32,000 nt of DNA from Methylorubrum extorquens (GTDB lineage: Bacteria; Pseudomonadota; Alphaproteobacteria; Rhizobiales; Beijerinckiaceae). Under the pieces are notes generated by a model. It had not been told where the DNA came from and did no database searches. It saw only the letters and a program-made list of their open reading frames with translations. Within the stretch, counting starts at the first letter, position 1. Each line of letters opens with the position of its first letter. The stretch spans positions 2,160,001 to 2,192,000 of the forward strand of contig LT962688.1 of the NCBI GenBank assembly GCA_900234795.1, given 5' to 3'. Of the stretch, positions 473-18,643 are shown one piece after another. The position numbers and the translations under genes are program-made.

Positions 473-518
473 GCTCGACCGCCCTTAGCCCCGACGCCGG
501 AGCGCATCCGGGTCTTAC

Positions 519-3279: not shown

Positions 3280-3453
3280 ATGCGTGCTATCTACGTGTTC
3301 CTGCTTGCGCTTTCCCTCGCCACTGGGGCGTTCTGGGCAACGATGCTCATCAGCCCACCGAAGACGAGAGCGGCACCGACTGCCTTAGCCGATACGTGGG
3401 TGATCAAGAAGGATCAGCCGCCGATTGCGGACGACTACGATCCAGAGTTCTGA
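3280..3453 (+). CDS. Small hypothetical membrane/secreted protein (57 aa)
   Basis: Internal ATG of ORF 3133-3453, preceded by AGGGAG (3266-3271). MRAIYVFLLALSLATGAFWATMLISPP... looks like a signal/TM segment. No recognisable family. Confidence 0.35.
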   Translation: MRAIYVFLLALSLATGAFWATMLISPPKTRAAPTALADTWVIKKDQPPIADDYDPEF

Positions 3454-3990
3454 ATTGGGCTAAAAGACCTGCTACGGCCTATGCCGATACATGGGGCGGC
3501 GGTCGCGTCGTGTGCGATCGCGGAAGGGTCACACTGCGAGCCGCGCTGATCGGCACCTCAGCCGTTGAGCGGTATCCCCATCTCCTGGTTCGTTATTGAC
3601 ACGGCCCCTGATGGTCAGAGACCGCGCCCAACTCAATGGGTGCGACCCATCTCGCTGCGCATCGCTTCCGTGACCGCCGCTCTCATCGTCAAAGCGCTCG
3701 GATTAGATCTTCGCACGCGCGCCGCTCACATGCCGGGGCAGATGCCCTCGGTGCGATTGATGCCGGCTTTCACCTTAACCGCTGCCGGCTGAAGGGCAGC
3801 GCGTGGAAACGGCGAAGCTACCCTCAGGGGCAAGCGCCATCCCATGTGGCGCGCAACCGCGCCCCGATCCTGAACTCGGCCGCCGCGAACGGGAGGCAAT
3901 TAGTTTCTTCAATCGTCCTCGCTGTGACGGTCTAACCGCGGAGGTCGGGCCCGCCTGTTCGGTGCCTGGGCAGCGTCGAGGAGGACGAAG

Positions 3991-4314
3991 ATGGCGGCGA
4001 CCCCGCGCGAGATCAGGCTGACGGAAGAGCGCCGGCGCCTCGACGTGATCTGGGAGGATGGCACGGCCTCCCGCCTCACGGCCGCGACGCTTCGTGCCCA
4101 CAGCCGCAGCGCCGAGACCGTGCGTGCCGGGATTGACGGGCTCCCCCCCGCGCTGCCGCACGACATCGCGATCACCGACGTCGTGCCGGTCGGCGCCTAC
4201 GCTGTGAACCTCGTCTTCTCCGACGGGCACGACCGCGGGATCTTCCCCTGGTCCTACCTGCGCGCGCTCGGCGACGACACGAGCCCGTGCGCGGCCGACC
4301 GCGCGGCAGCGTGA
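3991..4314 (+). CDS. DUF971 protein (gamma-butyrobetaine hydroxylase-like N-terminal domain family)
   Basis: 107 aa. GGAGGA Shine-Dalgarno at 3978-3983. The pattern L-x-V-x-W-x-DG-x-x-S-x-L-x-A-x-x-LR-x-x-S-x-SAE ... Y-A-V-x-L-x-F-SDGH-x-x-GI-F-x-W-x-YLR is the DUF971 signature as I recall it. Confidence 0.8.
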   Translation: MAATPREIRLTEERRRLDVIWEDGTASRLTAATLRAHSRSAETVRAGIDGLPPALPHDIAITDVVPVGAYAVNLVFSDGHDRGIFPWSYLRALGDDTSPCAADRAAA

Positions 4315-4325
4315 GGGAGACGGCG

Positions 4326-6074
4326 ATGAGCGCAGCGCAAGACGCGATTCAGGACGCGACCTCGGAGGTCGCCTGCGACGTGCTGGTGATCGGCGGCGGC
4401 ACCGCCGGGCCGATGGCGGCGCTGAAGGCCAAGCTGCGCAACCCGGCGGCCCGGGTGATCTTGCTGGAGAAAGCCAACGTCAAGCGCTCGGGCGCGATCA
4501 GCATGGGCATGGACGGGCTCAACAACGCCGTCATTCCCGGCTACGCCACGCCGGAGCAGTACACCAAGGAAATCACCATCGCGAACGACGGCATCTGCGA
4601 TCAGGCGCCGGTCTACAAATATGCCGAAAACTGCTTCGAGATCATCCAGGAACTCGACCGTTTCGGCATCCGCTTCCAGCGCGACGGCAACGGCGATTAC
4701 GACGTCAAGAAGGTGCATCATCTCGGCACCTACGTGCTGCCGATGCCCAACGGCGACACCGTCAAGAAGGCGCTCTACCGGCAATTGCGCAAGGCGCAGG
4801 TGCTGATCTCGAACCGCTTCATGGCGACCCGGCTTCTCAACGCGCCCGACGGCGCGGTGGCCGGGGCAGTGGCGGTCAATACCCGCACCGCCGAGTTCCT
4901 GGTGATCCGCGCCAAGGCGGTGATCCTCTGCCTCGGGGCGGCCGGGCGGCTCGGCCTGCCGCATTCGGGCTATCTGTGGGGCACCTACGAGAACGCCGCC
5001 AATTCCGGCGACGGCTATTCGATGGCCTACCACGCGGGGGCCGGGCTCGCGAACCTCGAATGCTTTCAGATCAACCCGCTGATCAAGGACTATAACGGCC
5101 CCGCCTGCGCCTACGTCGCCGGGCCGTTCGGCGCCTATACAGCCAACAGCGAGGGCAACCGCTTCATCGAGTGCGACTACTGGTCGGGCCAGATGATGCA
5201 GGAATTCTACAACGAACTCTCGAGCGGCAAGGGCCCGGTCTTCCTCAAGCTCGACCATCTCCACGCCGACACGGTCTCGGAGATCGAGACGATCCTGCAC
5301 AAGGTCGAGCGGCCCTCGCGCGGACGCTTCCACGAGAACCGCGGTACCGATTACCGCCACCGTATGGTCGAGATGCACATCTCGGAGGTGGGTTTCTGCT
5401 CCGGCCACAGCGCGTCGGGCGTGTTCGTCGACGAATTCGCCCGCACCACCGTGCCGGGCCTGTACTCGGCCGGCGACATGGCCAACGTCCCCCACAACTA
5501 CATGCTCGGCGCCTTCACCAACGGGGCGGTGGCGGGTGAGCACGCGATCGACCATGCGGGCGCGATCGACCTGCCTGAGATCGATGCCGAGGCGGTGGCG
5601 CGCGAGCGCGAGCGGGTGCTGGCGCCGACGCGGCGCGCGGACGGCATTCCCCCGAACCAGATCGAGTACAAGACCCGCCGCTTCGTCAACGACTACCTGC
5701 AGCCGCCCAAGGTCACGGCGAAGATGGAGATCGGGCAGCGGCGCTTTGCCGAGATCCGCGAGGATCTGGAGACGCGGATGGTCGCCCGCGACAGCCACGA
5801 GCTGATGCGGGCGCTGGAGGCGTCCTCGATCCTCGACTGCGCCGAGATGGCCGCCCACGCCTCGCTCTACCGCACCGAGAGCCGCTGGGGCCTCTACCAC
5901 AACCGCACAGACTACCCCGAGAAGAACGACGCGGAGTGGTTCTGCCACACGATCCTGCGGAAGGTGGAGGGCCGCATGGTCAGCGAGAAGCGGCCGATCA
6001 CGCCGTACATCGTGCCGATCGAGGCGGACGAGCGCGGCGCCTACGACCGCCAGCGTGTCCGCAAGCAGGCTTGA
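4326..6074 (+). CDS. FAD-dependent flavoprotein of the fumarate reductase/succinate dehydrogenase superfamily, adenylylsulfate-reductase alpha (AprA)-like
   Basis: ATG at 4326 after GGGAGA (4314-4319). 582 aa. N-terminal dinucleotide fold DVLVIGGGTAGPMAA; later LGAAGRLG, SGDGYSMAYHAGA, GLYSAGDMA. Length and overall pattern resemble AprA-type proteins more than SdhA/FrdA (recollection, not a search). An adjacent small ferredoxin is in the AprB-like position. Confidence 0.8.
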   Translation: MSAAQDAIQDATSEVACDVLVIGGGTAGPMAALKAKLRNPAARVILLEKANVKRSGAISMGMDGLNNAVIPGYATPEQYTKEITIANDGICDQAPVYKYAENCFEIIQELDRFGIRFQRDGNGDYDVKKVHHLGTYVLPMPNGDTVKKALYRQLRKAQVLISNRFMATRLLNAPDGAVAGAVAVNTRTAEFLVIRAKAVILCLGAAGRLGLPHSGYLWGTYENAANSGDGYSMAYHAGAGLANLECFQINPLIKDYNGPACAYVAGPFGAYTANSEGNRFIECDYWSGQMMQEFYNELSSGKGPVFLKLDHLHADTVSEIETILHKVERPSRGRFHENRGTDYRHRMVEMHISEVGFCSGHSASGVFVDEFARTTVPGLYSAGDMANVPHNYMLGAFTNGAVAGEHAIDHAGAIDLPEIDAEAVARERERVLAPTRRADGIPPNQIEYKTRRFVNDYLQPPKVTAKMEIGQRRFAEIREDLETRMVARDSHELMRALEASSILDCAEMAAHASLYRTESRWGLYHNRTDYPEKNDAEWFCHTILRKVEGRMVSEKRPITPYIVPIEADERGAYDRQRVRKQA

Positions 6075-6088
6075 GACCGGAGACATCC

Positions 6089-6322
6089 ATGCCCCTCGCC
6101 CACCAGCCCAGTGCGGTCCCGGTCACCGTGGACCCGGAAAAATGCATCGCCGACAAGGGCTGCACGGTCTGCGTCGATGTCTGCCCCCTCGACGTCCTGC
6201 GGATCAGCGACCTCACCGGCAAGGCCTACATGAAGTACGACGAGTGCTGGTACTGCATGCCCTGCGAGACCGACTGCCCGACCGGCGCCGTCACCGTCCA
6301 GATCCCCTACCTGCTGCGGTGA
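6089..6322 (+). CDS. 2x[4Fe-4S] ferredoxin (short AprB-like partner)
   Basis: ATG 6089, 14 nt after the flavoprotein stop, preceded by GGAGAC. 77 aa with two cluster motifs: C-x6-C-x2-C-x3-CP (CIADKGCTVCVDVCP) and C-x2-C-x2-C-x3-CP (CWYCMPCETDCP). Confidence 0.85.
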   Translation: MPLAHQPSAVPVTVDPEKCIADKGCTVCVDVCPLDVLRISDLTGKAYMKYDECWYCMPCETDCPTGAVTVQIPYLLR

Positions 6323-6327
6323 GCCCG

Positions 6328-7299
6328 ATGCCCATCACCGATCCGTTCGAGGATTTTGGCGAAGTTGCCGAGATCGCCCGCGGCCTCGACGATGCCGACC
6401 CGGCGGTGCGCCGCGTCGCGGTCCTCGCGCTCGCCGAGACCGCCGACCCGGAGGCCGTGCCCCCGCTCGCCCGGGCCGCCGCCGATCCCGATCCGGACGT
6501 GCGGCGGCAGGCGGCCCTCTCGCTCGGCGGCTTCGACGGACCCGAGACGGCGGCGGCGCTGGCGGGCGCGCTCACCGATCCCGACCGTTCGGTCGCGACG
6601 GCGGCGGCCGAGAGCCTGACGGAGTTGAAGGATGCCCGCGCCGGCGATCCGCTGCTGCCGCTCGCCGGGCACGGCGATGCCTTCGTGCGGGCGGCGGCCC
6701 TGCGGGCGCTTCGGGGGCTGAGGCTGCCCGCCGCGCTCGGGCCCGCGGTTGCGGCGCTCGGCGATCCGGAGCCGGCGGTGCGGGCGCAGGGCGTCGGCGT
6801 CATCGCCTACCTGAAGCGGGAGGAGGCGCTGCCCTCGCTCATCGCCGCGACCCGCGACGCGGATGCCGAGGTGCGCCGCGCCGCGGTCGGCGGCCTCGCC
6901 TTCGCCCGCCACGCCAGCGCCGTCGAGGCGATCGCGGCAGCCCTGCACGACGCCGAGTGGAGCGTGCGCGAGACCGCCGCCGAGGCCCTTGGACGGGCCG
7001 GGACGGCCGAAGGTGCCGAAGCGAGCGGCGAGGTGCTGATCGCGGCGCTCGGCGACGCCACATGGCAGGTTCGCCAGAAGGCCCTGCGCAGCCTCGGGCG
7101 GCTCAGGTTCCGCCGCGCCGTGCCGACGGTGCTGGCGGCGTTGTCTGAGGAGATGGCGTCCCTGCGCAAGGAGGCGGCGGCCGCGCTCGGCGAGATCGCC
7201 GACCCGGCCGCGCAAGCGGGTCTGGAGGGCATCGCGAACGATCCCGATCCGGACGTGCGCAAGACCGCGCGCTGGGCGCTGGCGCGGCTGGCGGCGTAG
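6328..7299 (+). CDS. HEAT-repeat (PBS-lyase HEAT-like) protein
   Basis: ATG 6328, 5 nt after the ferredoxin stop. The longer track ORF from 6055 reads across the ferredoxin gene out of frame. About 10 repeats of D-P/A-x-x-x-V-R-x-x-A-x-x-A-L-G/A, e.g. DPAVRRVAVLALAE, DPDVRRQAALSLGG, DAEVRRAAVGGLAF, DPDVRKTARWALAR. Confidence 0.8.
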   Translation: MPITDPFEDFGEVAEIARGLDDADPAVRRVAVLALAETADPEAVPPLARAAADPDPDVRRQAALSLGGFDGPETAAALAGALTDPDRSVATAAAESLTELKDARAGDPLLPLAGHGDAFVRAAALRALRGLRLPAALGPAVAALGDPEPAVRAQGVGVIAYLKREEALPSLIAATRDADAEVRRAAVGGLAFARHASAVEAIAAALHDAEWSVRETAAEALGRAGTAEGAEASGEVLIAALGDATWQVRQKALRSLGRLRFRRAVPTVLAALSEEMASLRKEAAAALGEIADPAAQAGLEGIANDPDPDVRKTARWALARLAA

Positions 7300-7443
7300 A
7301 GAGCGCCTCGCTCCGGTCGCAGGGCCGGAGCCGGGCTCATACCAAATCCGGTTGATTCCTTCGGGATGGCGGATTTGGGCTTCGGTGGGATCCCATCGCG
7401 CTGGCGCGATGGGTGCCCTCCTCAAGCGCCGCGCGGGCTGACC

Positions 7444-7480
7444 GATACGGTTCCCGCTTTGATCAAGCGGAAACCGTATC
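7444..7480. terminator. Strong hairpin at the convergent junction between the HEAT-repeat gene and the Crp/Fnr gene (possible bidirectional terminator)
   Basis: GATACGGTTCCCGCTT (7444-7459), loop TGATC, AAGCGGAAACCGTATC (7465-7480): 16-nt arms with one mismatch. It overlaps the regulator's stop codon (7479-7481). There is no U-tract on either side, so intrinsic-terminator function is uncertain. Confidence 0.4.
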
Positions 7481-8243
7481 ACCCCTCGGTCAGGACGATC
7501 TCCTGCAGCCGCCCGGGCCGAACCAGGCGGATATGCGTCGCATCGACGGACACGATGCCCTCGCGCTGGAACCGCTTGAGCATCATCGTCACCCATTGCC
7601 GGGTCGAGCCGACGAGGGCCGCGAGTTCGTCGTGGGTGATGCGGCGGCGGATGATCACCGTGCCGTTCTCAGGGGTCCCGTAGAGGTCGCCGAGATTGAG
7701 AAGAAGCTGCGCCAGCCGCTCGATCACCGAGCGTGTGCCGAGCATCTGCGCCATGGCGGTGTAGCAGCGCCCCTTGGCCTCCAGCGCGGCGATGAGGCAG
7801 AGCGCGAAGCCCGGCATCTGGCGGATCAGCCCGCGCAGGGTCGCGCTCGACAGCACGGTGACGCGCACCGGCTCGATCGCCACGCCCGACCATTGATGGC
7901 AGCCGCCGCCATAGATGCTCGGGCCGCCGATGAAGTGGCCCGGCGTCCAGTAGGCCAGCGTCACCTGCCGGCCCGACGGCCCCGAATAGAACACCCGGAC
8001 CCGCCCCTCCTCGATCAGGAAGATGCCCTCGTGCGGCGCCCCTTGGGTAAAGACGCTCTCGCCGGGCGCGAGGCTCACCGTGCGGCCGGCGGCGCGCACC
8101 CGAGCGCTCTCGGCGGGGGTGAGCCCGTCGAGGAAGCCCGCTCCGTCGTCGAGCCCCTCGACCGTCTCGCTGAGGAACAGCGCACTGGCGATCAGGGGCG
8201 CCGGACGGCGGGGTTCGGACAGGGCGAGCGGTGCCGACGACAT
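7479..8243 (-). CDS. Crp/Fnr-family transcriptional regulator
   Basis: ORF 7479-8378; I favour the ATG at 8243 (MSSAPLAL...), with 8291 as an alternative. cNMP-binding-like beta-roll (GESVFTQGAPHEGIFLIEEGRVRVF). C-terminal HTH (ITHDELAALVGSTRQWVTMMLKRFQREGIV). Confidence 0.85.
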   Translation of the reverse strand: MSSAPLALSEPRRPAPLIASALFLSETVEGLDDGAGFLDGLTPAESARVRAAGRTVSLAPGESVFTQGAPHEGIFLIEEGRVRVFYSGPSGRQVTLAYWTPGHFIGGPSIYGGGCHQWSGVAIEPVRVTVLSSATLRGLIRQMPGFALCLIAALEAKGRCYTAMAQMLGTRSVIERLAQLLLNLGDLYGTPENGTVIIRRRITHDELAALVGSTRQWVTMMLKRFQREGIVSVDATHIRLVRPGRLQEIVLTEG

Positions 8244-8343
8244 GGGAACCTCGGGAAAACGTTCGGGTGCGAGGCCCAGAGCATGACCCATCTCCCGCTC
8301 TCGATTATCGACGCGGCCTGCTTGAGAGCAATTCCAAATCGGG

Positions 8344-8353
8344 CTGTCGACAG
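8344..8353. promoter_or_regulatory. 10-bp perfect palindrome CTGTCGACAG in the divergent regulator/ABC-transporter control region
   Basis: Read directly, in a lower-GC intergenic stretch (8244-8562). It does not match TTGAT-N4-ATCAA or TGTGA-N6-TCACA, so it is only a candidate operator. Confidence 0.2.
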
Positions 8354-8562
8354 AACACATTCTTCTCCTGTCAAACATTTCGCGAGAAGAGATTTTCTTC
8401 GGCTCAAGAACAGTTGCGCATCGATCCAGAAACTCGACTTTCCAACGAAATTAATTGCTCGCCGCAACGGCTGTCCGAACGGCACATCCACGAGGTCGCC
8501 GCCCTCGCGAGCGGCCGACGCACTCGCCTCGACGGACTTGCCTCGCCTCACGGAGCCTCACG

Positions 8563-10005
8563 GTGACACAGCATATCCCGCTCACCCGCCGCCTCGCAGC
8601 GCTCCTCCTGACCGCCACGGTACTCGGCGCGGCGGGCTCCGGGGCAGCCCGGTCCGAGACGATCCGGGTCGCCGTCGGCACGCAGGACACCACGATCAAT
8701 TGCGCCACCGGCGGCCTGCTGATCCGCGAGTTGAAGCTCCTAGAGAAGTTCCTGCCCCGCGACGGGCGCTACAAGGACGCGACCTACGACATCCAGTGGC
8801 GCAACTTCACCAGCGGCGCGCCGCTCACCAACGAGATGGTGGCGGGCAAGCTCGATCTCGGGGCGATGGCCGACTTTCCCGGCTCGCTCAACGGCCACGC
8901 CTTCGCCAAGGCCGGGCGCCGCTCGCTGTTCATCTCGGTGCTCTCGGGCAGCCTGCACGGCAGCGGCAACGGCGTCGTCGTGCCGAAGGAATCCCCCGTG
9001 CAGTCGTTCGCCGAACTCAAGGGCAAGACGATCTCGGTGCCGTTCGCCTCGACCGCGCACGGGCTGCTCTTGCGGGCGGTGAAGGCGCAGGGATGGGAGC
9101 CCGGCCGCGACGTCACCATCATCACCCAGGCCCCGGAGGTGGCGGGCGCCGCGCTGCTCGCCAACAAGATCGAGGCACATGCCGACTTCGTGCCCTTCGC
9201 CGAGCTGTTCCCCTGGCGCGGCTTCGCCCGCAAGATCTACGATGGCGCCCAGGCCGACGCCCCGACCTTCCACGGCGCGCTCGCCGATGCCGACTATGCC
9301 GAGAAGTACCCGGAGATCGTTACCGCCTACCTGCGCGCGGCACTCGAAGCGGACCGGTTGATCGCCGCCGAGCCGGAAAAGTATTCCGAACTCATCGAGC
9401 GGGTGACGGGGATCGAGGCGGAGGTCGCCTACCTGTTCCACGGGCCGCTCGGCCTGCAGACCCGCGACGTGACCTGGAAGCCGGCCTACCGGCAGGCGGT
9501 AAAGACCTCCTTCGAGACGCTCAAGCTGCTGAAGAAGGCCGATTCCGACATCGACCTCGACCGCTTCGTCGATGACCGCTTCATCCGCGCGGCGGCGGCG
9601 CAGGCCGGTCTCGACTACGAGGCGCGGCTCAGGGACGAGGCGCCGCTGCCGCTCGCCGCGCAGGACAGCGCAACGGGCAAGCCGATCACTGATCCGTCCC
9701 GCGTGGCGCAACTCTGGATCCGCGGCGAGGACAAGGTCCGCCCCTACGCCTCGCCGGAAGCGGCGTTCGCGGCGCTCGCCGAGCTGGAAGGCCAGGGGCG
9801 CGAGGCCCGCGCCGTCTACGCCCAGGATCGGGGCAACGGGATCAAGCTGTTCGCCACCCAGGCCTGGTACGTGCGCGACGCGCAAGGGCATCTGAGCGCC
9901 TTCCTGCTCAAGGGCGACGCACAGGCCCACGCCGCGGCGAAAGGGGGCGACGTGCTCGATTTCGCCGCCGCGCGGAGCGGCCACGCGCGGCTCTCGGCCC
10001 GATGA
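8563..10005 (+). CDS. Periplasmic ABC-transporter substrate-binding protein (NitT/TauT, NMT1/SsuA-like) with an extra ~135-aa C-terminal domain
   Basis: GTG start at 8563 gives VTQHIPLTRRLAALLLTATVLGAAGSGAARS (signal peptide). The earlier part of ORF 8455-10005 is Arg/Pro-rich junk. The SBP body ends near DRFVDDRFIRAA (~nt 9600). The rest is an additional domain (see findings). Confidence 0.85.
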   Translation: MTQHIPLTRRLAALLLTATVLGAAGSGAARSETIRVAVGTQDTTINCATGGLLIRELKLLEKFLPRDGRYKDATYDIQWRNFTSGAPLTNEMVAGKLDLGAMADFPGSLNGHAFAKAGRRSLFISVLSGSLHGSGNGVVVPKESPVQSFAELKGKTISVPFASTAHGLLLRAVKAQGWEPGRDVTIITQAPEVAGAALLANKIEAHADFVPFAELFPWRGFARKIYDGAQADAPTFHGALADADYAEKYPEIVTAYLRAALEADRLIAAEPEKYSELIERVTGIEAEVAYLFHGPLGLQTRDVTWKPAYRQAVKTSFETLKLLKKADSDIDLDRFVDDRFIRAAAAQAGLDYEARLRDEAPLPLAAQDSATGKPITDPSRVAQLWIRGEDKVRPYASPEAAFAALAELEGQGREARAVYAQDRGNGIKLFATQAWYVRDAQGHLSAFLLKGDAQAHAAAKGGDVLDFAAARSGHARLSAR

Positions 10006-10889
10006 GCCCCTTGATGAACCCCTTGATGAGCCCGTCGGTGAGCGCCTCCGGAATCGAGACGGCCGCCCCGGTCCGCGTGCCGCGCGGGCGGCCGGTCCGG
10101 TTTGCGCGACCATCGACGCTCGGGCGCTTGGCGCTGCGCGGCGTCGCCCTGGCCCTGAGCCTGCTCGCTTGGCACCTCGCGGCGAGCAGCCGGCTCGATC
10201 TCGGCCTCGTCACCTTCCGCAACGTGCCGACTCCGGCGGCCGCCGCGCAGGCGGCCTGGGCGCTGGTCCACGCCCCCGCGCTGCCGACCCATCTGGGCGC
10301 CAGCCTCGCCCGGGTGCTGTCGGGCTTCCTCGCCGCTTTGGGCGTGGGCGTCGCCCTCGGCCTCGCCATCGGCCGGTCGCGGCTCGCCCGCGACCTGCTG
10401 CTGCCGCCGCTCGAAGTGCTGCGCCCGATCCCGGCGGTGGCCTGGATCCCGCTGGCGATCCTGATGTTCCCGTCCTCCGAGGTCTCGATGGCCTTCATCA
10501 CCTTCACGGGCGCGCTGTTCCCGATCCTGCTCAACACCGTGCACGGGGTGGAATCGGTGCATCCCCGGCTTGTCGCCGCCGCCCGCAGCCTCGGCGCGGG
10601 CGATGCCGCGATCCTGCGCGAGGTGATCTTGCCGGGCGCCGCGCCCAGCATCGTGACGGGGGCGGCGATCGGCATGGGCACGGCGTGGTTCTGCCTCGTG
10701 ACCGCCGAGATGATCTCCGGCCAGTACGGGATTGGCTACTTCACCTGGGAATCCTATACACTGCAGAACTACGACGACATCGTCGTCGGCATGCTGCTGA
10801 TCGGCCTCCTCGGGATGGGATCCAGCCTCGTCGTGCGCTGGCTCGGCGACCGGGCGACACCCTGGGTCGGCGCGGGAGGCCAGCGATGA
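10002..10889 (+). CDS. ABC-transporter permease (NitT/TauT family)
   Basis: ATG overlaps the SBP stop (ATGA at 10002-10005). Multi-TM protein with an EAA-like loop (AARSLGAGDAAILREVILPGAAPSIVTG). In-frame alternative starts at 10014, 10026 and 10038. Confidence 0.9.
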   Translation: MSPLMNPLMSPSVSASGIETAAPVRVPRGRPVRFARPSTLGRLALRGVALALSLLAWHLAASSRLDLGLVTFRNVPTPAAAAQAAWALVHAPALPTHLGASLARVLSGFLAALGVGVALGLAIGRSRLARDLLLPPLEVLRPIPAVAWIPLAILMFPSSEVSMAFITFTGALFPILLNTVHGVESVHPRLVAAARSLGAGDAAILREVILPGAAPSIVTGAAIGMGTAWFCLVTAEMISGQYGIGYFTWESYTLQNYDDIVVGMLLIGLLGMGSSLVVRWLGDRATPWVGAGGQR

Positions 10890-11767
10890 GCGCGGGAATG
10901 GCACCGGTCCAGGCCGGCCCTCTCACCGGCACCGATCCTCTTGCCGACACCGATCCCTTTGCCGACGGTCACGTCGCCATCCGGGATGGGGCGATCCGGC
11001 TCGGTCGGGGCGATGCGGCGTTCGACGTGGTCGAGAACATCAGCTTCGACATCCCAGGCCGCCAGTTCGTCTGCATCCTCGGGCCCTCGGGCTGCGGAAA
11101 GTCGACCCTGCTCGGGGCGGTGGCCGGGCACCTCGCCCTGTCGCGCGGCAGCGTCAGCCTCGACGGGCGGGCGATCGCCGGGCCGCATCCCGACCGCGGC
11201 ATCGTCTTCCAGCAGCACACCCTGTTCCCCTGGCTCAGCGTGATCGACAACGTCGCCTTCGGCATGAAGATGAAGGGCGTCGGCCGCAGCGAGCGCCGGG
11301 AACGGGCCCGGGCGCTGCTGGCGCAGGTCGGGCTGTCCGACTTCGCCGAGCGCTATCCGGCCGAATTGTCGGGGGGCATGCAGCAGCGGGTGGAGATCGC
11401 CCGCGCGCTGATCAACCGGCCTCGGGTCCTGCTGATGGACGAGCCGTTCGGGGCACTCGATGCGCAGACGCGGCTGACGATGCAGGAACTGCTGCTCGAC
11501 ATCTGGACGCGCCACCGCACCACGATCCTGTTCGTGACGCACGACATCGACGAGGCCCTGTTCCTGGCGGATCGGCTCGTCGTGATGACGCCGCGGCCGG
11601 GGCGCATCCTCGACGACATTCCCCTTGATTTCGGGCGCCCGCGGGACCGCGGCCTGATCACCGATCCGCGCTTCACGGCGATCAAGCAGCGCTGCCTCGC
11701 GCTCCTTCACAGCGATCCCGGCCATGTGCCGCTCGCCCGCTTGAGCCCGATCGGAGTTCCGGCATGA
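10886..11767 (+). CDS. ABC-transporter ATP-binding protein (NitT/TauT family)
   Basis: ATGA overlap with the permease stop (10886-10889). Walker A GPSGCGKST, signature LSGGMQQR, Walker B VLLMDEPFGALD, H-loop VTHD. Confidence 0.92.
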   Translation: MSAGMAPVQAGPLTGTDPLADTDPFADGHVAIRDGAIRLGRGDAAFDVVENISFDIPGRQFVCILGPSGCGKSTLLGAVAGHLALSRGSVSLDGRAIAGPHPDRGIVFQQHTLFPWLSVIDNVAFGMKMKGVGRSERRERARALLAQVGLSDFAERYPAELSGGMQQRVEIARALINRPRVLLMDEPFGALDAQTRLTMQELLLDIWTRHRTTILFVTHDIDEALFLADRLVVMTPRPGRILDDIPLDFGRPRDRGLITDPRFTAIKQRCLALLHSDPGHVPLARLSPIGVPA

Positions 11768-12420
11768 CCTCGAATGCCCCCTCGTCGCCGACCATCGCGT
11801 ACTATTTCAGCTTCCTCTCGCTGTGGTCCTATGTCGGCAGTCGCGCCTTCCGCGACCTCGCCGAACGGAACGGCGCGCGGATCGTCTACAAGCCGGTCGA
11901 TCTGATGGCAGTCTTCGCCGCCGGCGGCGGCAAGCCCGTCAAGGAGAGGCCCCTGCAGCGGCAGGCCTACCGCCTCGTCGAAATGCAGCGCTGGCGCCGC
12001 ATCCGCGGCATCCCGCTGGTGCTGCACCCGAAATTCTACCCGGCCGACCCCTCCCTCGCCCACCGGGTCCTGCTGGCCGCCCTCGACGAGGGCAGCGCGG
12101 TCGCCGACTTCGTCCATGCCGGCCTCAGCGCCGTCTGGGCGGACGAACGCGACATCGCCGATCCCGGCACGATCATCCGGCTCGCCGATGCGGCCGGGCT
12201 CGACGGGAAACGCCTGCTCGCCCGAGCCGACGAGCCGGCGTTCCGCGAGGCCGAGGCGGCTCTGACCCGCGAGGCGATCGGGCGGCAGGTGTTCGGGGCG
12301 CCGTTCTATGTCTACCGCGATGAGCCGTTCTGGGGTCAGGACCGGCTCGACCTGCTGGAGGCGGCGATCTCGGGCTCGGACGCGCCGATCCCGCTGCCGG
12401 ACCTCTCCGCTTCCGGCTGA
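11764..12420 (+). CDS. DsbA-family thioredoxin-fold protein, 2-hydroxychromene-2-carboxylate isomerase-like
   Basis: ATGA overlap with the ATPase stop (11764-11767). IAYYFSFLSLWSYVGS near the N-terminus and GAPFYVYRDEPFWGQDRLDLLE near the C-terminus are characteristic of HCCA-isomerase/DsbA-like proteins (recollection). Confidence 0.8.
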   Translation: MTSNAPSSPTIAYYFSFLSLWSYVGSRAFRDLAERNGARIVYKPVDLMAVFAAGGGKPVKERPLQRQAYRLVEMQRWRRIRGIPLVLHPKFYPADPSLAHRVLLAALDEGSAVADFVHAGLSAVWADERDIADPGTIIRLADAAGLDGKRLLARADEPAFREAEAALTREAIGRQVFGAPFYVYRDEPFWGQDRLDLLEAAISGSDAPIPLPDLSASG

Positions 12421-13745
12421 GCCCGGCTCTGCCCGAGCAGGGCGTTGAGCAGGATGGCCGCGATCGCGGTGAGCAGGATCGGATCCTTCACGATCGGCCC
12501 GAACGCGTCGGGCACGGCGCGGAAGAAGAGCGGCTGCACGATCGGGATCAGGCCGATCCCCAACGAGGCGGCGATGATCAGCGCGTCGCGGCTGCCCGCG
12601 CGGGCGTAATCGACCTGGGCCAGGATGCGGATGCCGGTGGCTGCCACCATGCCGAACATCACCAGCGCCGCCCCGCCGAGCACCGGCTGCGGGATCGAGG
12701 CCGCCAGATAGGCGACCTTGGGCACGAGGCCGAGCACCAGCATGATCCCGCCGGCGGCCGCGCAGACCCAGCGGCTGTGCACGCCGGTGAGTCCGACGAG
12801 GCCGACATTCTGCGAATAGGACAGGTAGGGAAACGTGTTGAGCAGGCCGCCGATCAGCGTGCCGAGCGCGTCGGCGCGCAGGCCCCGGCGGATGTCCTCG
12901 GTCCCGATCTTGCGCCCGGTCATGACGCCGAGCGCCAGGAACATCCCGGTCGCCTCGATGAAGACGATCGTCATCACGAGGCACAGGATCAGGCAGGGCA
13001 CGAGGTGGAAGGTCGGCAGCCCGAACTGCAGGGGCAGCACCACCCGCAGCCACGGTTCGGCGCCCAGGCCCTCGAAGCTCGTCCAGCCGAGTGCCAGGGT
13101 GACGGCGTATCCGAGCCCGATCCCGAGGAGCACGGCGACGCGCCCGACGAAGCCCGGACCGAACCGGGCAATGAGCAGGGTCGCGGCGAGCACGCCCGCC
13201 GCCACCGCGACCGTGCCGGGCGCACCGAACGCGGCGGTGCCCGCACCCCCGCCCGCCCAGCCGACGGCGACGCGGGTGAGCGCGATGCCGATCATCAGGA
13301 GGATCGTGCCGGTCACGACCGGTGGGAAGAACCGCATCACCTGGCCGATGAAGGGCGTGACAAGGAGCCCGTAGAGGCCGCCGACGATCACCGCGCCGTA
13401 GATGCCGGTGAGGCCGACGCCGGGTATCGCCGCGATGGCGAGCAGCGGCTGGATCGCCACCGCGGTCACGCCCATGATGACGGGAAGCCGGATGCCGAAC
13501 GGGCCGATGCCCACCGTCTGGATCAGCGTGGCGATGCCGCAGGCGAACAAGTCGGCGTTGATGAGGAGCGCGATCTGGTCCTTCGGCAGGTGCAGCGCCC
13601 CGCCGACGATCAGCGGCACGGCGATGGCGTTGGCGTACATGACGAGCACGTGCTGCAAACCGAGCACGAACAGGCGCGGCGCGGGCGGCACCGCATCGAC
13701 GCCGTCGCGCGGCGGGCCGCCGGGAAGGGGATCGACCGGCCTCAT
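12336..13745 (-). CDS. Nucleobase:cation symporter-2 (NCS2, xanthine/uracil permease-type) transporter
   Basis: 469 aa. LGLQHVLVMYANAIAVPLIVG, multiple TM segments and SYSQNVGLVGLTGVHSRWV are typical NCS2 motifs. The start ATG overlaps the stop of the upstream monooxygenase gene (ATGA at 13742-13745). Confidence 0.88.
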   Translation of the reverse strand: MRPVDPLPGGPPRDGVDAVPPAPRLFVLGLQHVLVMYANAIAVPLIVGGALHLPKDQIALLINADLFACGIATLIQTVGIGPFGIRLPVIMGVTAVAIQPLLAIAAIPGVGLTGIYGAVIVGGLYGLLVTPFIGQVMRFFPPVVTGTILLMIGIALTRVAVGWAGGGAGTAAFGAPGTVAVAAGVLAATLLIARFGPGFVGRVAVLLGIGLGYAVTLALGWTSFEGLGAEPWLRVVLPLQFGLPTFHLVPCLILCLVMTIVFIEATGMFLALGVMTGRKIGTEDIRRGLRADALGTLIGGLLNTFPYLSYSQNVGLVGLTGVHSRWVCAAAGGIMLVLGLVPKVAYLAASIPQPVLGGAALVMFGMVAATGIRILAQVDYARAGSRDALIIAASLGIGLIPIVQPLFFRAVPDAFGPIVKDPILLTAIAAILLNALLGQSRAQPEAERSGSGIGASEPEIAASSRSSRS

Positions 13746-14788
13746 CCCTTCACTCGCGAAAACACCTGCGCGGCGAAGCGGGCCATCTCCGCCTCGAACG
13801 GCTGGAATTGCAGCATGAACAGCTCGATTCCCGCCGCGTGGAAGGCGCGGATGCGCTCGGCCACCCCATCGTAGCTGCCGACGAGCCCGGCCGCCGTGCC
13901 GCCGTTGGTGCCGACATGGTGCGCGGCCGCCGCATCGGTCTTGGCGAACATCACGCTCGCCGCGTCCGTGCGCGCCCGGGTGTCGGCGCGGATGGCCTCA
14001 TCGCGGCGGCTCAAGCTCAGAAGCCGGGCGAATTCGTCCTGCGCCTCGGCTTCCGTCTCACGGGCGATCACGAAGGCCGAGAGCCCGTAGCGCAGACGGC
14101 CCTGCGCGGCCGGGCGCCGGGCGACGTCGGCGATGAGATCGGCGACCGCGGCCAGCGGCTGGCCGTTGATGAACCAGACGTCGCCGTGATCGGCCACCAG
14201 CGCGCGGGCCGGCTCGGACTCGCCGCCGACATAGATCGCCGGCCGCGCCCGGTAAGTGCCCGCGGGCTTGAGCTGATAGTCCTCGACGCGGAAGTGCCGG
14301 CCCTCGTGGGTGACGCGCTCGCCCCGCAGCAACCGGTCCACCAGGGCGATCCATTCGCGGCCATAGGCGTAGCGCTCGTCATGGGCCGGGAACGGCAGGC
14401 CGGCCCGCTCGAATTCGGCGCGGTTCCAGGCGTTGACGAGGTTGAGGGCGAAGCGCCCCCGGCTGACCTGCTCGATCTGCAGCGCCATCTTGGCGAGCAA
14501 CACCGGATGGTAGAGCCCCGGCTTGATCGCCGCGATGATCTCGATCCGCTCGGTGAGCGCCGCCAGCGCGGCCGAGGCGGTCCAGGCCTCCAGCTGGTCG
14601 CGGGTCTCGTCGTAGGGGTTCACCGTATGCTGGGCGACGAGGACGGAATCGTAGCCGAGGCGCTCGGCCTCGAGCACGAGGGCGCGGTTGCGCGCCCAGG
14701 AGGCGTCGTGCGGCTCGTCCGGATCGTGGCGGGCGGCGCGGGAGCCGTGGACCGGCGCCCAGACGCCGAAGCGAAGCGGATGGCTCAT
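13742..14788 (-). CDS. Luciferase-like (LLM) flavin-dependent monooxygenase, SfnG/SsuD-clade-like
   Basis: Only the last 348 aa of track ORF 13742-16222 are real, starting at MSHPLRFGVWAPV (ATG 14788). Contains RGRFALNLVNAWNRAEFERAGLPFPAHDERYAYGREWIALVDRL and GRHFRVEDYQLKPAG. These resemble dimethylsulfone/alkanesulfonate monooxygenases as I recall them. Confidence 0.85.
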   Translation of the reverse strand: MSHPLRFGVWAPVHGSRAARHDPDEPHDASWARNRALVLEAERLGYDSVLVAQHTVNPYDETRDQLEAWTASAALAALTERIEIIAAIKPGLYHPVLLAKMALQIEQVSRGRFALNLVNAWNRAEFERAGLPFPAHDERYAYGREWIALVDRLLRGERVTHEGRHFRVEDYQLKPAGTYRARPAIYVGGESEPARALVADHGDVWFINGQPLAAVADLIADVARRPAAQGRLRYGLSAFVIARETEAEAQDEFARLLSLSRRDEAIRADTRARTDAASVMFAKTDAAAAHHVGTNGGTAAGLVGSYDGVAERIRAFHAAGIELFMLQFQPFEAEMARFAAQVFSRVKG

Positions 14789-14793
14789 CGCGC

Positions 14794-15762
14794 TCACCCG
14801 CGTCCTGCCGGCGGCTGCCAGAGCGATACGGCGGTGGCGTCGAGCCGGCGCGGGATCAGCCCGGCCTCGTGGAAGGTGTCGGCGATGGCCTGCTGCTCGG
14901 AGAGCGCGGCCCGATCGACCGCCTTGACCGCGTAGGAGCGCCGCTCGTTGACGGTGGCGACCACCGCCGGCGGCAGGTCTCCCCAGATCGGCGCCAGCAG
15001 CGCGACGGCCGCCGACGGGTTGGCCTTCACCCATTGTCCCGCCTCGACCAGGGCGGAAAAGACCGTGGCGACGACCTCGGGCTGCTCGGCGGCGAAGCTG
15101 TCGTTGACCGTGTAGTAGCGGTTGTAGCTCGACAGGCCGGTGGCGTCGGTCAGCACCCGCACCGGGCGCTTGGCCTGTACGATGGCCAGGAACGGATCCC
15201 AGATCGACCACGCCTCGATGCCGCCCTGCTCGAACGCCGCGAGCCCGTCCGCCGCCTCCAGATAGGCCGGGCGGATGTCGGCGAATCGCAGGCCCCCCCG
15301 CTTCAGCGCGCCCGCGAGGATGAAGTGGCAGCCCGAGCCCTTCGAGACGCCGACCGTACGGCCTTTCAGATCCGCGATCGTGCGGATCGGCGACTCGTCC
15401 GGCACGATGATCGCCTCGGCCTGCGGCGAACCGGCCTCCATAGCGTAGAAGGTCAGCGGGGCTCCGGCCGATTGGGTGAAGATCGGCACCGCGTCGGCCA
15501 CATCGGCGTGGAGATCGACCGCGCCGGTGTTCATCGGTTCGAGCACCTTGGTGAACAGGTGCCAGCTCACGCCGAGCCCTTGCGCGCCGAGCCGCTCCTC
15601 CAGGGTGCCCCGCGCCTTCAGCACGGTGAGGAGCGTCGAGGAGCGCTGATAGCTGAGCTTCACCGTCCGTCCGGCGCGGGCCGGACCGGAGCGACCGAGG
15701 ACGAGGCCGGCGGCGAGTGTGGCACTCGATGAAAGGGCGAAGTGGCGGCGGGTCAGGCTCAT
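14794..15762 (-). CDS. Periplasmic sulfonate-type (SsuA-like) substrate-binding protein
   Basis: Real start MSLTRRHFALSSSATLAAGLVLG (twin-arginine-like signal) at ATG 15762; the upstream part of track ORF 14794-16146 is out-of-frame. SBP-like body (TIADLKGRTVGVSKGSGCHF, EAWSIWDPF). The start overlaps the cytochrome c stop (ATGA at 15759-15762). Confidence 0.85.
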   Translation of the reverse strand: MSLTRRHFALSSSATLAAGLVLGRSGPARAGRTVKLSYQRSSTLLTVLKARGTLEERLGAQGLGVSWHLFTKVLEPMNTGAVDLHADVADAVPIFTQSAGAPLTFYAMEAGSPQAEAIIVPDESPIRTIADLKGRTVGVSKGSGCHFILAGALKRGGLRFADIRPAYLEAADGLAAFEQGGIEAWSIWDPFLAIVQAKRPVRVLTDATGLSSYNRYYTVNDSFAAEQPEVVATVFSALVEAGQWVKANPSAAVALLAPIWGDLPPAVVATVNERRSYAVKAVDRAALSEQQAIADTFHEAGLIPRRLDATAVSLWQPPAGRG

Positions 15763-16343
15763 CGGGTCTCCGTGTGCGCGGTGGGCCGGGCGGAAGGGCG
15801 AGCGGAGGGATTCTGCGGCGCGATGTCGGGGCGCGGATCGGCGGTGAAGCCGTCGCGGTTCGGCATGGCGACCCTGGGCAGGGAGGCCGCATCGAGGCTT
15901 GCCTCCTCCGGCAGCAGGCCGTTGAGGTGCAGCACATAGGCGCTGACCGCGTAGGTTTCGTCCGGGCTGAGCGATTGCGGCGCGTCGAACGGCATTGCCC
16001 GGCGCACGTAGTCGAACAGGGTCGTGGCATAGGGCCAGAAGCTGCCGACCGTGCGCAGGGGTTTTGCGCTCGCGAGGCTGCCCCGGCCGCCGGCCAGCGG
16101 CTCGGCGGCGGCCCCCTCGCCGCGGGCGCCGTGGCAGCCGGCGCAACGCGCGGCGAACAGGACCGCGCCGTCGCGCACGCTGCCGTGGCCGGGCGGCAGG
16201 CCCTGGCCGTCGGGCCGGACATCGATGTCCCAGGCGGCGATGGTCTCAGGGCTTGCTGGGCGGCCGATGCCGAGGGGGTCCGCCGCGGCCGGGCCGGCGA
16301 GGGTGAGGCTCAGGACGAGCGGGAGAAGCGCCTCAGGCCGCAT
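15759..16343 (-). CDS. Monohaem c-type cytochrome, SoxD/SorB-like partner of the molybdoenzyme
   Basis: Signal peptide MRPEALLPLVLSLTLAGPAAA. One CxxCH (CAGCH). WDIDVRPDGQGLPPG and FWPYATTLFDYVRRAMPF motifs, as in SoxD-type cytochromes (recollection). The start overlaps the upstream gene end by 11 nt. Confidence 0.8.
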   Translation of the reverse strand: MRPEALLPLVLSLTLAGPAAADPLGIGRPASPETIAAWDIDVRPDGQGLPPGHGSVRDGAVLFAARCAGCHGARGEGAAAEPLAGGRGSLASAKPLRTVGSFWPYATTLFDYVRRAMPFDAPQSLSPDETYAVSAYVLHLNGLLPEEASLDAASLPRVAMPNRDGFTADPRPDIAPQNPSARPSARPTAHTETR

Positions 16344-17553
16344 AGGTCACCGCCCCGTTCGCGCCGAGGCTCCAGCCGAACACCGCGTTGTTGTGGTAAA
16401 AGGAGCGGGTGCCGCGCACGGCGACCAAGGCCTCGCGACTCGGCTGCACGTAGCCGGTCTCGTCCCGCGCCCGGCTCAGCAGTTTGGCCGGTCCGCCCTC
16501 CCAACGCCACGGCAGGCGGAAGCGGGTGAAGCAGCGCGGCAGCACCGGCCCTTCCAGATGCGCCTCCGCCCAAGAGGCGCCGCCATCGGTCGAAACCTCG
16601 ACGCCGGCGATGCGCCCGCGCCCGGTCCAGGCGAGGCCCCGGATCTCGTGAAAGCCGGGCTCCCGAAGCTGCTGGCCGCCCGACGGCGCGGTGATGACGG
16701 ACTTGGCCTCCATCACGAAGGTGAATTGCCGCGCCGTGCCGTCCGGCATCAGGTCGGTGTATTTCGAGGTTTCCTCCCGCGTCTGGAACGGCCGGTCGCC
16801 GACCTTCAGGCGGCGTAGCCACTTGATGCTGAGGTTGCCCTCCAGCCCCGGCAGGAACAGCCGCAGGGGATAGCCCTGCTCCGGCCGCAGCCGCTCGCCG
16901 TTCTGCGCGTAGGCGAGGATCGCCCCGTCGAGCGCGTCGAGGGGGATCGAGCGGGTCATGGCGCAGGCATCCGCCCCCTCCGCCAGGATCCAGGCGGCGC
17001 CCGGCTGCACGCCGACCTCGGCGAGCAGGGTCGAGAGCTCGACGCCGGTCCACTCGGCGCAGGAGATCAGGCCGTGGCTGTCCTGCACCGTCCAGTCGGG
17101 CTTGGCCCCGAGCCAGGGCGTGTTGCCCGAACATTCGAGGAAATGCAGCCGTGAGACCGCGGGGAAGCGGAGGATGTCGTCCATGGTGAGGATCAGCGGG
17201 CGCGCGACGAGGCCGTGCACCACGAGGCGGTGCCGGTCCGGATCGATCGCCGGGATGCCGGCGTGGTGGCGCTCGTAATGCAGGCCGTTGGGCGTGAGGA
17301 TGCCGTGCAGGCCATGGAGCGGCGTCACCGTGGCCACCGCCCCGGGAAAGGGCGGCGGCAGCCGGGGATAGCGCGCAAGCGTCTCCCGCGGGCCGGGCCG
17401 GCCATAGCCCGGAGCGGTGGCGCCCTGCTCGCGGGTCCAGGGCGGCACGTCGAGGGGGCCTGCCTCCGCCAGGGCTCCGGTGGCGGCGCCCGCCCCGGCA
17501 AGCGAGCCGGCCAGGCGTAGGAAGGCGCGGCGGTTTTCCATGACCTCGCCCAT
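16333..17553 (-). CDS. Molybdopterin sulfite dehydrogenase / sulfite-oxidase-family enzyme (SoxC/SorA-type)
   Basis: Twin-arginine signal (M)ENRRAFLRLAGSLAGAGAATGALA. NGLHYERHHAGIP, HGLVARPLILTMDDILRFPAVSRLHFLECSGN and the conserved Cys ligand region. Start is ambiguous between ATG 17553 and ATG 17541. Confidence 0.9.
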   Translation of the reverse strand: MGEVMENRRAFLRLAGSLAGAGAATGALAEAGPLDVPPWTREQGATAPGYGRPGPRETLARYPRLPPPFPGAVATVTPLHGLHGILTPNGLHYERHHAGIPAIDPDRHRLVVHGLVARPLILTMDDILRFPAVSRLHFLECSGNTPWLGAKPDWTVQDSHGLISCAEWTGVELSTLLAEVGVQPGAAWILAEGADACAMTRSIPLDALDGAILAYAQNGERLRPEQGYPLRLFLPGLEGNLSIKWLRRLKVGDRPFQTREETSKYTDLMPDGTARQFTFVMEAKSVITAPSGGQQLREPGFHEIRGLAWTGRGRIAGVEVSTDGGASWAEAHLEGPVLPRCFTRFRLPWRWEGGPAKLLSRARDETGYVQPSREALVAVRGTRSFYHNNAVFGWSLGANGAVTYAA

Positions 17554-17554
17554 C

Positions 17555-18595: not shown

Positions 18596-18643
18596 GATCG
18601 TTCTTTTATTTGCGAGATCGAGATAAGATCTATTCATATCCTT

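Follow-up and report, generated by a model that had tools for sequence, protein, structure and literature searches.

The 32-kb window of the Methylorubrum extorquens genome analysed here (the whole stretch of 32,000 nucleotides) contains a Crp/Fnr-family regulator gene placed between two operons, one encoding a flavoprotein that resembles AprA of adenosine 5'-phosphosulfate (APS) reductase, and the other encoding an ATP-binding cassette (ABC) importer of the NitT/TauT type that ends with a gene for a DsbA-fold protein. This arrangement is probably best explained in two layers, namely a conserved regulator-importer-redox unit and a DsbA-fold gene that was added later and in a lineage-specific manner. 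That importer, regulator and AprA-like redox module belong together as one unit is strongly supported; regulator and importer are shown, as far as gene order can tell, to be the core of a conserved unit of eight to nine predicted genes, the other half of which is the upstream redox operon. An earlier note on this DNA had suggested that all of these genes might form one functional unit. That suggestion survives for importer, regulator and AprA-like module, by virtue of cross-phylum synteny, of operon fusion in the GntR-type loci and of a common putative operator, but not for the DsbA-fold gene.

Conservation of the regulator-importer-redox unit

With the solute-binding protein (SBP) of the window's importer as query, 80 metagenome loci were retrieved and their neighbouring genes scored by tblastn. 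Genes for the flavoprotein, the ferredoxin or the HEAT-repeat protein of the redox operon stand alongside the long SBP gene in 64 of the 68 loci that could be assessed. In a second set, composed of plasmids and chromids, the flavoprotein gene lies at most 7 kb from the SBP gene in 42 of 46 records, and in all 35 of those whose SBP is at least 60% identical; the replicons carrying the unit span Rhizobium, Sinorhizobium, Burkholderia, Acinetobacter baumannii, cyanobacteria and actinobacteria. Across genomes, linkage of the importer with the AprA-like cluster is thus conserved, whereas that of the DsbA-like gene with the importer, which the earlier note had proposed as a check, is not.

When the loci are sorted by the position of the ferredoxin gene, two architectures can be distinguished. 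In the two-operon, Crp-type layout, to which the window belongs, a DUF971-flavoprotein-ferredoxin-HEAT operon is followed by a Crp gene on the opposite strand and then by SBP, permease and ATPase genes; the ferredoxin gene is found upstream of Crp in 10 metagenome loci, and 21 of the 80 loci, as well as S. fredii, have a Crp/Fnr gene as conserved neighbour divergent from that of the SBP. Annotated examples come from Bradyrhizobium and a Sinorhizobium fredii plasmid. In the single-operon, GntR-type layout, exemplified among annotated sequences by Pseudomonas guariconensis, a Cupriavidus plasmid and Acinetobacter baumannii, the order on one strand is GntR-flavoprotein-ferredoxin-SBP-permease-ATPase-HEAT-DUF971, with the importer genes inside the redox operon; the ferredoxin gene directly precedes the SBP gene in 52 metagenome loci, 43 of the loci carry a GntR gene, and DUF971 is common to both architectures. 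One further locus (L127) has its redox genes downstream of the importer. Throughout, the product names given by NCBI to the genes of the unit are generic.

A putative operator in front of both operons

The regulator combines a cNMP_binding domain (PF00027, E 4e-17) with an HTH_Crp_2 domain (PF13545, E 3e-14). No cysteine occurs in the first 120 of its 254 residues, where the N-terminal cysteine cluster of FNR was looked for; since that cluster is missing, the signal is, to judge from the protein's residues, not oxygen sensed through an iron-sulfur cluster. A conserved palindrome, GCAAnTAATTGC (in its perfect form GCAATTAATTGC), occurs in 25 of 26 Crp-SBP intergenic regions, 77-116 bp 5' of the SBP start and with an AATTGCT core flanked by the palindrome; loci of the Bradyrhizobium type have a -10-like ATAGT some 30 bp further downstream. 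The window holds just two sites with at most one mismatch to GCAAnTAATTGC, one ahead of each operon, where a shuffle test leads one to expect 0.06; a third match at 27107-27118, with two mismatches, is at chance level and was set aside. Exactly two such sites, before DUF971 and before SBP, are likewise present in each of the seven Crp-type loci whose sequence covers the two promoters and whose two sites are within the threshold, and a copy lies 63-95 bp 5' of the DUF971 start in all eight Crp-type loci that reach this promoter. One locus (L097) has the DUF971-side copy only, and the sequence of another (L138) ends before the DUF971 promoter. Sites with at most one mismatch were scored in 17 of 21 Crp-type loci as against 3 of 43 GntR-type loci, where they do not lie at promoters; the four Crp-type loci without a scored site carry an AATTGCT-centred element in a form that the 12-base pattern misses.

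Because the palindrome precedes both operons and tracks the Crp gene, the two operons look like one regulon, and we infer that the palindrome is the operator through which the regulator joins them. In alphaproteobacterial loci the first layer is made up of two operons that are separated by the Crp/Fnr gene, with a palindrome 63-116 bp 5' of each first start codon. Crp gives way to a GntR regulator in Pseudomonas, Cupriavidus and Acinetobacter, where the importer genes lie between ferredoxin and HEAT in one operon. The regulator resembles class II activators of the FNR/FixK type in its two domains and in the position of the palindrome 5' of putative target operons, but differs from them in lacking the FNR cysteine cluster. 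Its presumed half-sites, GCAA/TTGC around TAAT, are also unlike those of FNR/FixK/Crp, for which TTGAT-N4-ATCAA and TGTGA-N6-TCACA are the consensus sequences for comparison.

The redox module and the importer

The solved structures nearest to the flavoprotein are the alpha subunit of a reductase of 3'-phosphoadenosine 5'-phosphosulfate (PAPS) (8a8o_A, E 4.3e-56) and then AprA (1jnr, E 6e-39), both well ahead of SdhA/FrdA. The neighbouring ferredoxin displays the motifs CxxxxxCxxCxxxCP and CxxCxxCxxxCP and matches aprB and HgcB weakly (aprB 35.6 bits, cut-off 135.65); its orthologues, 62-96% identical, adjoin the flavoprotein gene in related loci. A flavin adenine dinucleotide (FAD) subunit of the fumarate-reductase family is paired with a small ferredoxin of two [4Fe-4S] clusters, as in AprAB and in the PAPS reductase of the methanogen Methanothermococcus thermolithotrophicus, an AprAB-like alpha2beta2 enzyme with FAD and 2x[4Fe-4S] (PDB 8a8o; PMC10322725). 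The unit nevertheless departs from AprAB in several respects: the flavoprotein falls into the separate NCBIfam equivalog NF006131 and far below the aprA cut-offs (TIGR02061, 145 bits against 641.75; NF005331, 262 against 557), its hosts are aerobic heterotrophs, and an ABC importer is always encoded with it, along with the HEAT and DUF971 proteins. In NF010374 (PRK13800) this flavoprotein and HEAT repeats are naturally fused, and the HEAT protein of the window matches the C-terminal portion of that model. No sat or APS-kinase genes were seen in the unit loci examined.

As for the importer, its 480-residue SBP consists of a TauA/SsuA-like domain, with TauA 6ssy and SsuA 2x26 as nearest PDB entries, and a C-terminal domain of about 135 residues (130-140; approximately 9583-10002), and over its whole length identities of 71-90% are seen among Methylobacterium, Bradyrhizobium, Tardiphaga, Pseudomonas and Pseudoduganella. 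Membership in the characterised equivalogs SsuABC, TauABC and NrtABC failed for every SBP, permease and ATPase model, all being below their curated cut-offs: the SBP belongs to PF09084/PF13379 and matches TIGR01728 with E 2e-31 but 109 bits against 163.5, the best NCBIfam matches of the permease (SaoP, NtrB, SsuC, TauC) are all under cut-off, and the ATPase scores 265 bits with the taurine ATPase model NF008421 (cut-off 357). The system thus resembles SsuABC/TauABC as a three-component importer set among sulfonate monooxygenase genes, with an SBP whose N-terminal part is nearest to TauA/SsuA and an ATPase and permease nearest to the TauB/TauC/SsuC/NtrB models. Besides its scores under the curated cut-offs, it differs in being tied to an AprAB-like flavoprotein-ferredoxin pair rather than to SsuD/TauD, in the extra SBP domain, conserved family-wide, and in its Crp/Fnr or GntR regulators, whereas SsuABC/TauABC are controlled by LysR regulators of the CysB/Cbl/SsuR type.

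The extra domain has the fold of NosL. The C-terminal 140 residues, modelled alone with AlphaFold2 from 23 sequences, gave a predicted local distance difference test (pLDDT) score of 88.5, and the top six Foldseek matches of this model are all NosL (7og7, E 6.8e-6, probability 1.00, template modelling score 0.60), in agreement with a sub-threshold Pfam NosL match (PF05573, 18.5 bits against 24). A model of the full-length SBP from 12 sequences was set aside because of its pLDDT of 49.6. NosL, which serves the NosDFYL complex as copper chaperone, shares the fold and is likewise a periplasmic partner of an ABC transporter; it is a lipoprotein, however, while the domain described here is fused to the SBP, falls under the Pfam cut-off and lacks candidate Cu(I) ligands. 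Copper binding is unlikely, since no invariant Cys, Met or His is present in the domain among the 23 sequences; the domain may serve for docking or as a second ligand site. No description of an SBP carrying a NosL-fold domain was found, and the architecture is unreported.

Sulfur scavenging is the best guess for the role of the unit. The TauA/SsuA-type system would import a small organosulfur anion, of the sulfonate, sulfate ester or S-sulfonate type, and pass it to the flavoprotein-ferredoxin pair, which, by analogy with APS/PAPS reductases, would release or handle sulfite; the latter would then be dealt with by the neighbouring SoxC or by assimilatory enzymes, with HEAT and DUF971 proteins as presumably obligatory accessory subunits. 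Such a model fits the neighbouring genes for SoxC sulfite dehydrogenase and for SfnG-like and SfnB-like proteins. Alternatively, the unit could have nothing to do with sulfur: the importer would take up some small anion such as nitrate, bicarbonate or an amide, while the flavoprotein would be a carbon or nitrogen enzyme of the fumarate-reductase/aspartate-oxidase type. The generic NCBI names ("fumarate reductase/succinate dehydrogenase flavoprotein", "nitrate ABC transporter SBP") point in this direction, as do the sulfonate, taurine and aprA models that all remain under cut-off, the amidase and M20 peptidase genes adjoining some loci and the A. baumannii locus with no obvious sulfur neighbours. 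This alternative is nonetheless quite unlikely, given that the nearest solved relatives are PAPS/APS reductases for the flavoprotein and TauA/SsuA for the SBP, and that in Methylorubrum, Sinorhizobium, Cupriavidus, Pseudomonas and one locus resembling Bradyrhizobium the unit is bordered by genes of the LLM/SfnG, SfnB, NtaA, TauD and SoxC types.

The DsbA-fold gene as a lineage-specific operon tail

By the same comparisons of gene order, the DsbA-fold gene is shown to be a lineage-specific and recent tail of the importer operon, confined to the Methylorubrum/Leaf456 lineage. It follows the ATPase gene in one of 51 metagenome importer loci (L098), no orthologue was found on the 46 SBP-bearing replicons, and it is absent from all single-operon, GntR-type loci. 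Its loss can even be traced in a Methylobacterium-like contig (L095) whose SBP is 91-95% identical to that of the window and which carries the entire unit, but no DsbA-like gene: its ATPase gene runs into the monooxygenase operon, and about 1.9 kb, corresponding to window positions ~11758-13681, are gone. At 13100-13180 of this contig the junction is clean, the ATPase stop lying 16 bp from what is left of the NCS2 permease gene, namely its first 15-20 codons; because this N-terminal PbuX remnant has been retained, the gap is shown to be a deletion, after which the unit persists. The DsbA-like gene is thus not required for the importer-redox unit, and the idea that it is a built-in partner of the importer or redox module, as the earlier note would have it, is not supported.

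This idea had been prompted by gene overlaps. The SBP, permease, ATPase and DsbA-like genes are indeed chained by three ATGA overlaps, exactly at 10002-10005, 10886-10889 and 11764-11767, which indicate an operon, co-transcription and translational coupling. Four-base overlaps are, however, the commonest gene junction in high-GC operons, and the three found here are therefore nothing unusual and imply no fixed stoichiometry; a "stoichiometric co-translation" of the DsbA-fold enzyme with the ATPase goes beyond what a 4-nt overlap can tell. Moreover, in the nearest relatives sharing the gene order of the window, Methylobacterium sp. Leaf456 (L040) and L098, the ATPase-DsbA junction consists of a TAA stop and an 11-nt spacer with no overlap.

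The DsbA-like protein itself is 97-100% identical to M. extorquens (Methylorubrum, also Methylobacterium) proteins, of which NCBI names those with 98% identity as an isomerase of 2-hydroxychromene-2-carboxylate (HCCA), and among solved structures it matches 3fz5 (E 4e-21) and NahD (2imd, E 5e-18). It is not a periplasmic DsbA oxidase, its motif being S-L-W-S, with neither CxxC nor signal peptide. Instead, a DSBA-like thioredoxin fold, a Ser-type motif and a C-terminal (S/N/Q)DR glutathione-site motif ascribe it to the kappa-class glutathione S-transferase (GST)/HCCA-isomerase type; FSFxSLWSY (S19, with Ser replacing CxxC) and FWGQDRL (Q192-D193-R194) are invariant, and its chemistry is probably glutathione-dependent. 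NahD and the kappa-class GSTs share the PF01323 fold and comparable motifs (FSFLSLWSY in the window and FDFLSPFSY in NahD; FWGQDRL and WWGNDRL). The protein nevertheless differs from NahD and 3fz5 in that the identity is remote, its gene lies outside any aromatic-catabolism cluster and its conserved partner is an importer of the HAAT type. Placement as an HCCA isomerase is likewise not borne out by context, no nah-type or other aromatic-catabolism genes being conserved neighbours in 43 orthologue loci, which were fetched via the DsbA-like gene.

The orthogroup is tight (63-82% identity across Alpha- and Betaproteobacteria), and its usual partner becomes apparent in these 43 loci. In 25 of them the DsbA-like gene ends a HAAT/Liv-type importer operon, joined by short gaps or 4-nt overlaps. 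The six genes of this operon encode a Peripla_BP_6 SBP, two BPD_transp_2 permeases, two ATPases and the kappa-GST-like protein, and are 55-86% identical to the Ottowia set. Their order is conserved in L015-L047, L057 and L059 (for instance at 5476-10648 of the Ottowia locus L005), with surroundings that are otherwise unrelated. In eleven loci (all nine from Methylobacterium, one from Pseudomonas and one from Beijerinckia) the gene stands tail-to-tail with an NCS2 permease gene, and seven have neither neighbour; L040 alone matches the arrangement of the window. Clustering all open reading frames (ORFs) around the 43 orthologues revealed no conserved neighbour beyond the HAAT components and PbuX. 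Within the PbuX-linked clade the upstream gene varies, from an Opp-type importer (L007) or an NMT1_2 importer with an SfnB-like gene (L009) to a PAAT importer in Pseudomonas and a divergent NitT importer in M. pseudosasicola; in a distant orthologue outside that clade (L044) the gene follows amidase and TctC genes. Since the PbuX-linked copies form one clade nested within the HAAT-linked group in a distance tree, the HAAT linkage is, by this topology, ancestral and the arrangement of the window derived. Derivation of the latter by deletion of HAAT genes from a layout like that of Afipia L033 was considered and rejected, the Methylobacterium copies being a separate, PbuX-linked clade. The DsbA-like gene was also considered as a general sulfur-island gene, with sulfur-marker genes near 11 of 43 orthologues against 2 of 37 distant paralogues, a weak enrichment; this was dropped, as the genes upstream of the HAAT-DsbA operons vary by locus.

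In the second layer of the proposed account, the DsbA-fold gene is native to the 3' end of a HAAT-type importer operon; the Methylobacterium clade has lost the HAAT importer, leaving the gene tail-to-tail with the NCS2 permease, and the importer-redox unit has landed directly upstream only in the Methylorubrum/Leaf456 lineage, making the DsbA-like gene the last one of its importer operon. The conserved HAAT partnership suggests that an imported solute, amino-acid- or amide-like in nature, is converted by the enzyme, which would probably use glutathione. No description of the DsbA-like/HAAT pairing was found in the literature; an Alcaligenes paper proved to concern a different HCCA-isomerase-like gene, beside an MHS transporter.

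Alternatively, the DsbA-like gene may work with the facing NCS2 permease and thereby with the SfnG-like monooxygenase operon, in a two-gene module for a nucleobase-like or sulfur-bearing heterocycle, with the position behind the ABC ATPase gene providing a promoter only. The tail-to-tail arrangement in the eleven loci, the single clade formed by the PbuX-linked copies, the joint loss of both genes in L095 and the translational coupling of PbuX to the monooxygenase gene all speak for this possibility, which is nonetheless improbable: convergent genes cannot be co-transcribed, the 25 HAAT-linked orthologues have no PbuX, and a single deletion of two adjacent genes is a weak sign of common function.

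Evidence weighing against the two-layer account

Several observations weigh against the proposed two layers. The metagenome loci are partly redundant and many are Pseudomonas-like, and four of them (L091, L101-L103) have Crp and importer genes with no redox module nearby. Binding of the palindrome by the Crp/Fnr protein is presumed from their co-occurrence; the ligand class is a guess, because the importer components miss all curated cut-offs of characterised NitT/TauT equivalogs, and the sulfite chemistry is an analogy, because the flavoprotein misses those of aprA. Literature searches yielded no paper describing the unit and none linking any of its genes to a substrate. With regard to the second layer, the fusion of the DsbA-like gene to the ATPase operon has been retained in three sequences of the Methylorubrum/Leaf456 lineage, and the HAAT-DsbA operon of Afipia L033 has the long-SBP importer just upstream, the two being at most 10 kb apart in Tardiphaga L003 and Bradyrhizobium L059, a proximity above chance for single-copy loci, yet weak as evidence and confounded by island structure. 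Finally, in three Bradyrhizobium loci (L036, L038 and L039; ~4000-12920) the order is TetR, HAAT importer, DsbA-like gene, flavoprotein and Fer4 ferredoxin, the flavoprotein (FAD_binding_2/Succ_DH_flav_C, 542-551 residues) being about 26% identical to that of the window and the Fer4 protein comprising 106 residues. This flavoprotein-ferredoxin pair after the DsbA-like gene is restricted to these closely related loci, which are therefore counted as a single event.

Together with the ATGA overlap, the conserved Ser and GQDR glutathione-site motifs and the general habit of the orthogroup of closing importer operons, the retention of the arrangement in L040 and L098, the three Bradyrhizobiaceae loci with a nearby long-SBP importer and the paralogous pair in Bradyrhizobium can be read differently: the DsbA-fold enzyme would be integral to the importer, made in step with the ATPase, and would process the imported compound or the product of the AprA-like enzyme (for example, an S-sulfonate) by glutathione or thiol chemistry. 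This is unlikely in view of its near absence from importer loci and replicons, its complete absence from the GntR-type operons, the unit left intact by the L095 deletion, the overlap not kept in L040 and L098, and a main partner elsewhere that is an unrelated HAAT importer in surroundings not related to sulfur. The two-layer account therefore remains the preferred one.

Gene layout and surroundings

Genes were called over the window by frame analysis of third-position G+C content (GC3) together with Pfam and NCBIfam profiles (Table 1). The GC3 signal backs all four plus-strand genes of the importer block and the minus-strand regulator gene, and the profile matches bear out the families assigned in the earlier note (NitT/TauT-type importer, Crp/Fnr regulator, HCCA-isomerase-like DsbA fold). 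As it had also described, the regulator and HEAT genes are convergent, the latter ending at 7299, and the regulator and SBP genes are divergent, with 319 bp (8244-8562) between them. The regulator most likely starts at the ATG at 8243, preceded by a GAGG ribosome-binding site, and not at 8378; the resulting 254 residues compare with 244-267 in relatives. The SBP starts with the GTG at 8563, and a signal peptide is evident from its sequence. The true start of the HEAT gene is at 6328: in the long ORF 6055-7299 the first 90 codons are read in the wrong frame, and the non-coding part (6055-6327) masks the ferredoxin gene, which had been overlooked in the first reading, as had the NosL-fold domain of the SBP.

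Table 1. Features of the window, with positions numbered from its first nucleotide.
Feature	Position	Strand	Evidence or remark
GGDEF-EAL gene	832-2868	+	
Candidate operator, copy 1, GCAATTAGTTTC (reverse strand GAAACTAATTGC)	3896-3907		95 bp 5' of DUF971 start, head of redox operon
DUF971/GBBH-like_N small protein, first gene of redox operon	3991-4314	+	Pfam PF06155, E 1.3e-22
AprA/PAPS-reductase-like FAD flavoprotein	4326-6074	+	NCBIfam NF006131 (PRK08275), 1097 bits, cut-off 587
AprB-like 2x[4Fe-4S] ferredoxin, 77 residues	6089-6322	+	Two Cys motifs in translation
HEAT-repeat protein, 323 residues	6328-7299	+	Pfam HEAT_2, E 5e-55
Crp/Fnr-family regulator, 254 residues	7479-8243	-	cNMP_binding and HTH_Crp_2
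Candidate operator, copy 2, GAAATTAATTGC	8447-8458		116 bp 5' of SBP start
SBP, SsuA/TauA-like, with C-terminal NosL-fold domain	8563-10005	+	NMT1/NMT1_2, TIGR01728
ABC permease, NitT/TauT type (TauC/SsuC/NtrB-like)	10002-10889	+	BPD_transp_1
ABC ATPase, TauB-like	10886-11767	+	ABC_tran
Cytoplasmic DsbA-fold, kappa-GST/HCCA-isomerase-like protein	11764-12420	+	PF01323 DSBA, 119.6 bits
NCS2 transporter (xanthine-permease-like, PbuX)	12336-13745	-	TIGR03173, 500 bits, cut-off 414
SoxC-type sulfite dehydrogenase	16333-17706	-	564 bits, cut-off 420
804-residue protein	18735-21149	+	Faint DUF3604 match alone
SfnB-family protein	21421-22662	+	

At its 3' end the DsbA-like gene shares 85 nt (12336-12420) with the 3' end of the convergent gene for the NCS2 permease. 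The latter is the final gene of the SfnG-like monooxygenase operon, and its start overlaps the monooxygenase stop by ATGA (13742-13745); for a purine transporter, such translational coupling of a "xanthine permease" with a monooxygenase of the sulfonate type is odd. Downstream of the NCS2 gene, the map comprises genes for an SfnG/SsuD-like monooxygenase, for two more SBPs of the NMT1 type, for a sulfite dehydrogenase of the SoxC type, for a protein of the SfnB family and for a Cys/Met pyridoxal-phosphate enzyme. The unit therefore lies in an organosulfur-acquisition island, and 13742-22662 makes up a sulfur-acquisition island. Further on, a 205-residue ORF (23251-23868, plus strand) matches only the first 192 of 490 positions of a Cpn60/GroEL model; it may represent a chaperonin gene that has been truncated, or else a pseudogene.

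The overall G+C content of the window is about 70%. Its first part (1-3900), which contains the GGDEF-EAL gene, has a G+C content of 57-63%, compared with 65-75% elsewhere. In Mesorhizobium japonicum pMLa (L177) a GGDEF phosphodiesterase gene likewise lies upstream of the same redox operon, and an IS110 element has destroyed the Crp-importer half. In another locus (L093) a HAAT importer is followed by a further SdhA/AprA-like flavoprotein and a Fer2_3 protein; the linking of flavoproteins of this type to importers may be a design that recurs. An Rfam scan of the window returned no match, and scans for sigma-70 promoters and terminators gave signals at or below shuffle levels.

Implications

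A four-base overlap made the DsbA-fold enzyme seem an integral partner of the transporter, an over-reading that the comparative data correct; its gene is a recent arrival whose usual partner is a different importer. As to the unit, which occurs in rhizobia, Burkholderiaceae, Pseudomonas, Acinetobacter baumannii, cyanobacteria and actinomycetes, a bolder reading can be put forward only tentatively: it may represent a widespread, undescribed system in which an importer with a NosL-fold SBP feeds an APS/PAPS-reductase-like pair, helped by HEAT and DUF971 proteins, for the reductive, oxygen-independent release of sulfite from organosulfur compounds in aerobes, with a glutathione-dependent kappa-GST recruited in Methylorubrum. 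If the sulfur-scavenging model proposed above holds, a relative of the dissimilatory-type APS reductase has become a nutrient-scavenging enzyme of aerobic bacteria, tied to its own importer and regulator, and has spread across phyla on plasmids and chromids, a clinical pathogen included, under gene names that are all generic. The common putative operator makes the proposed regulon open to direct testing.

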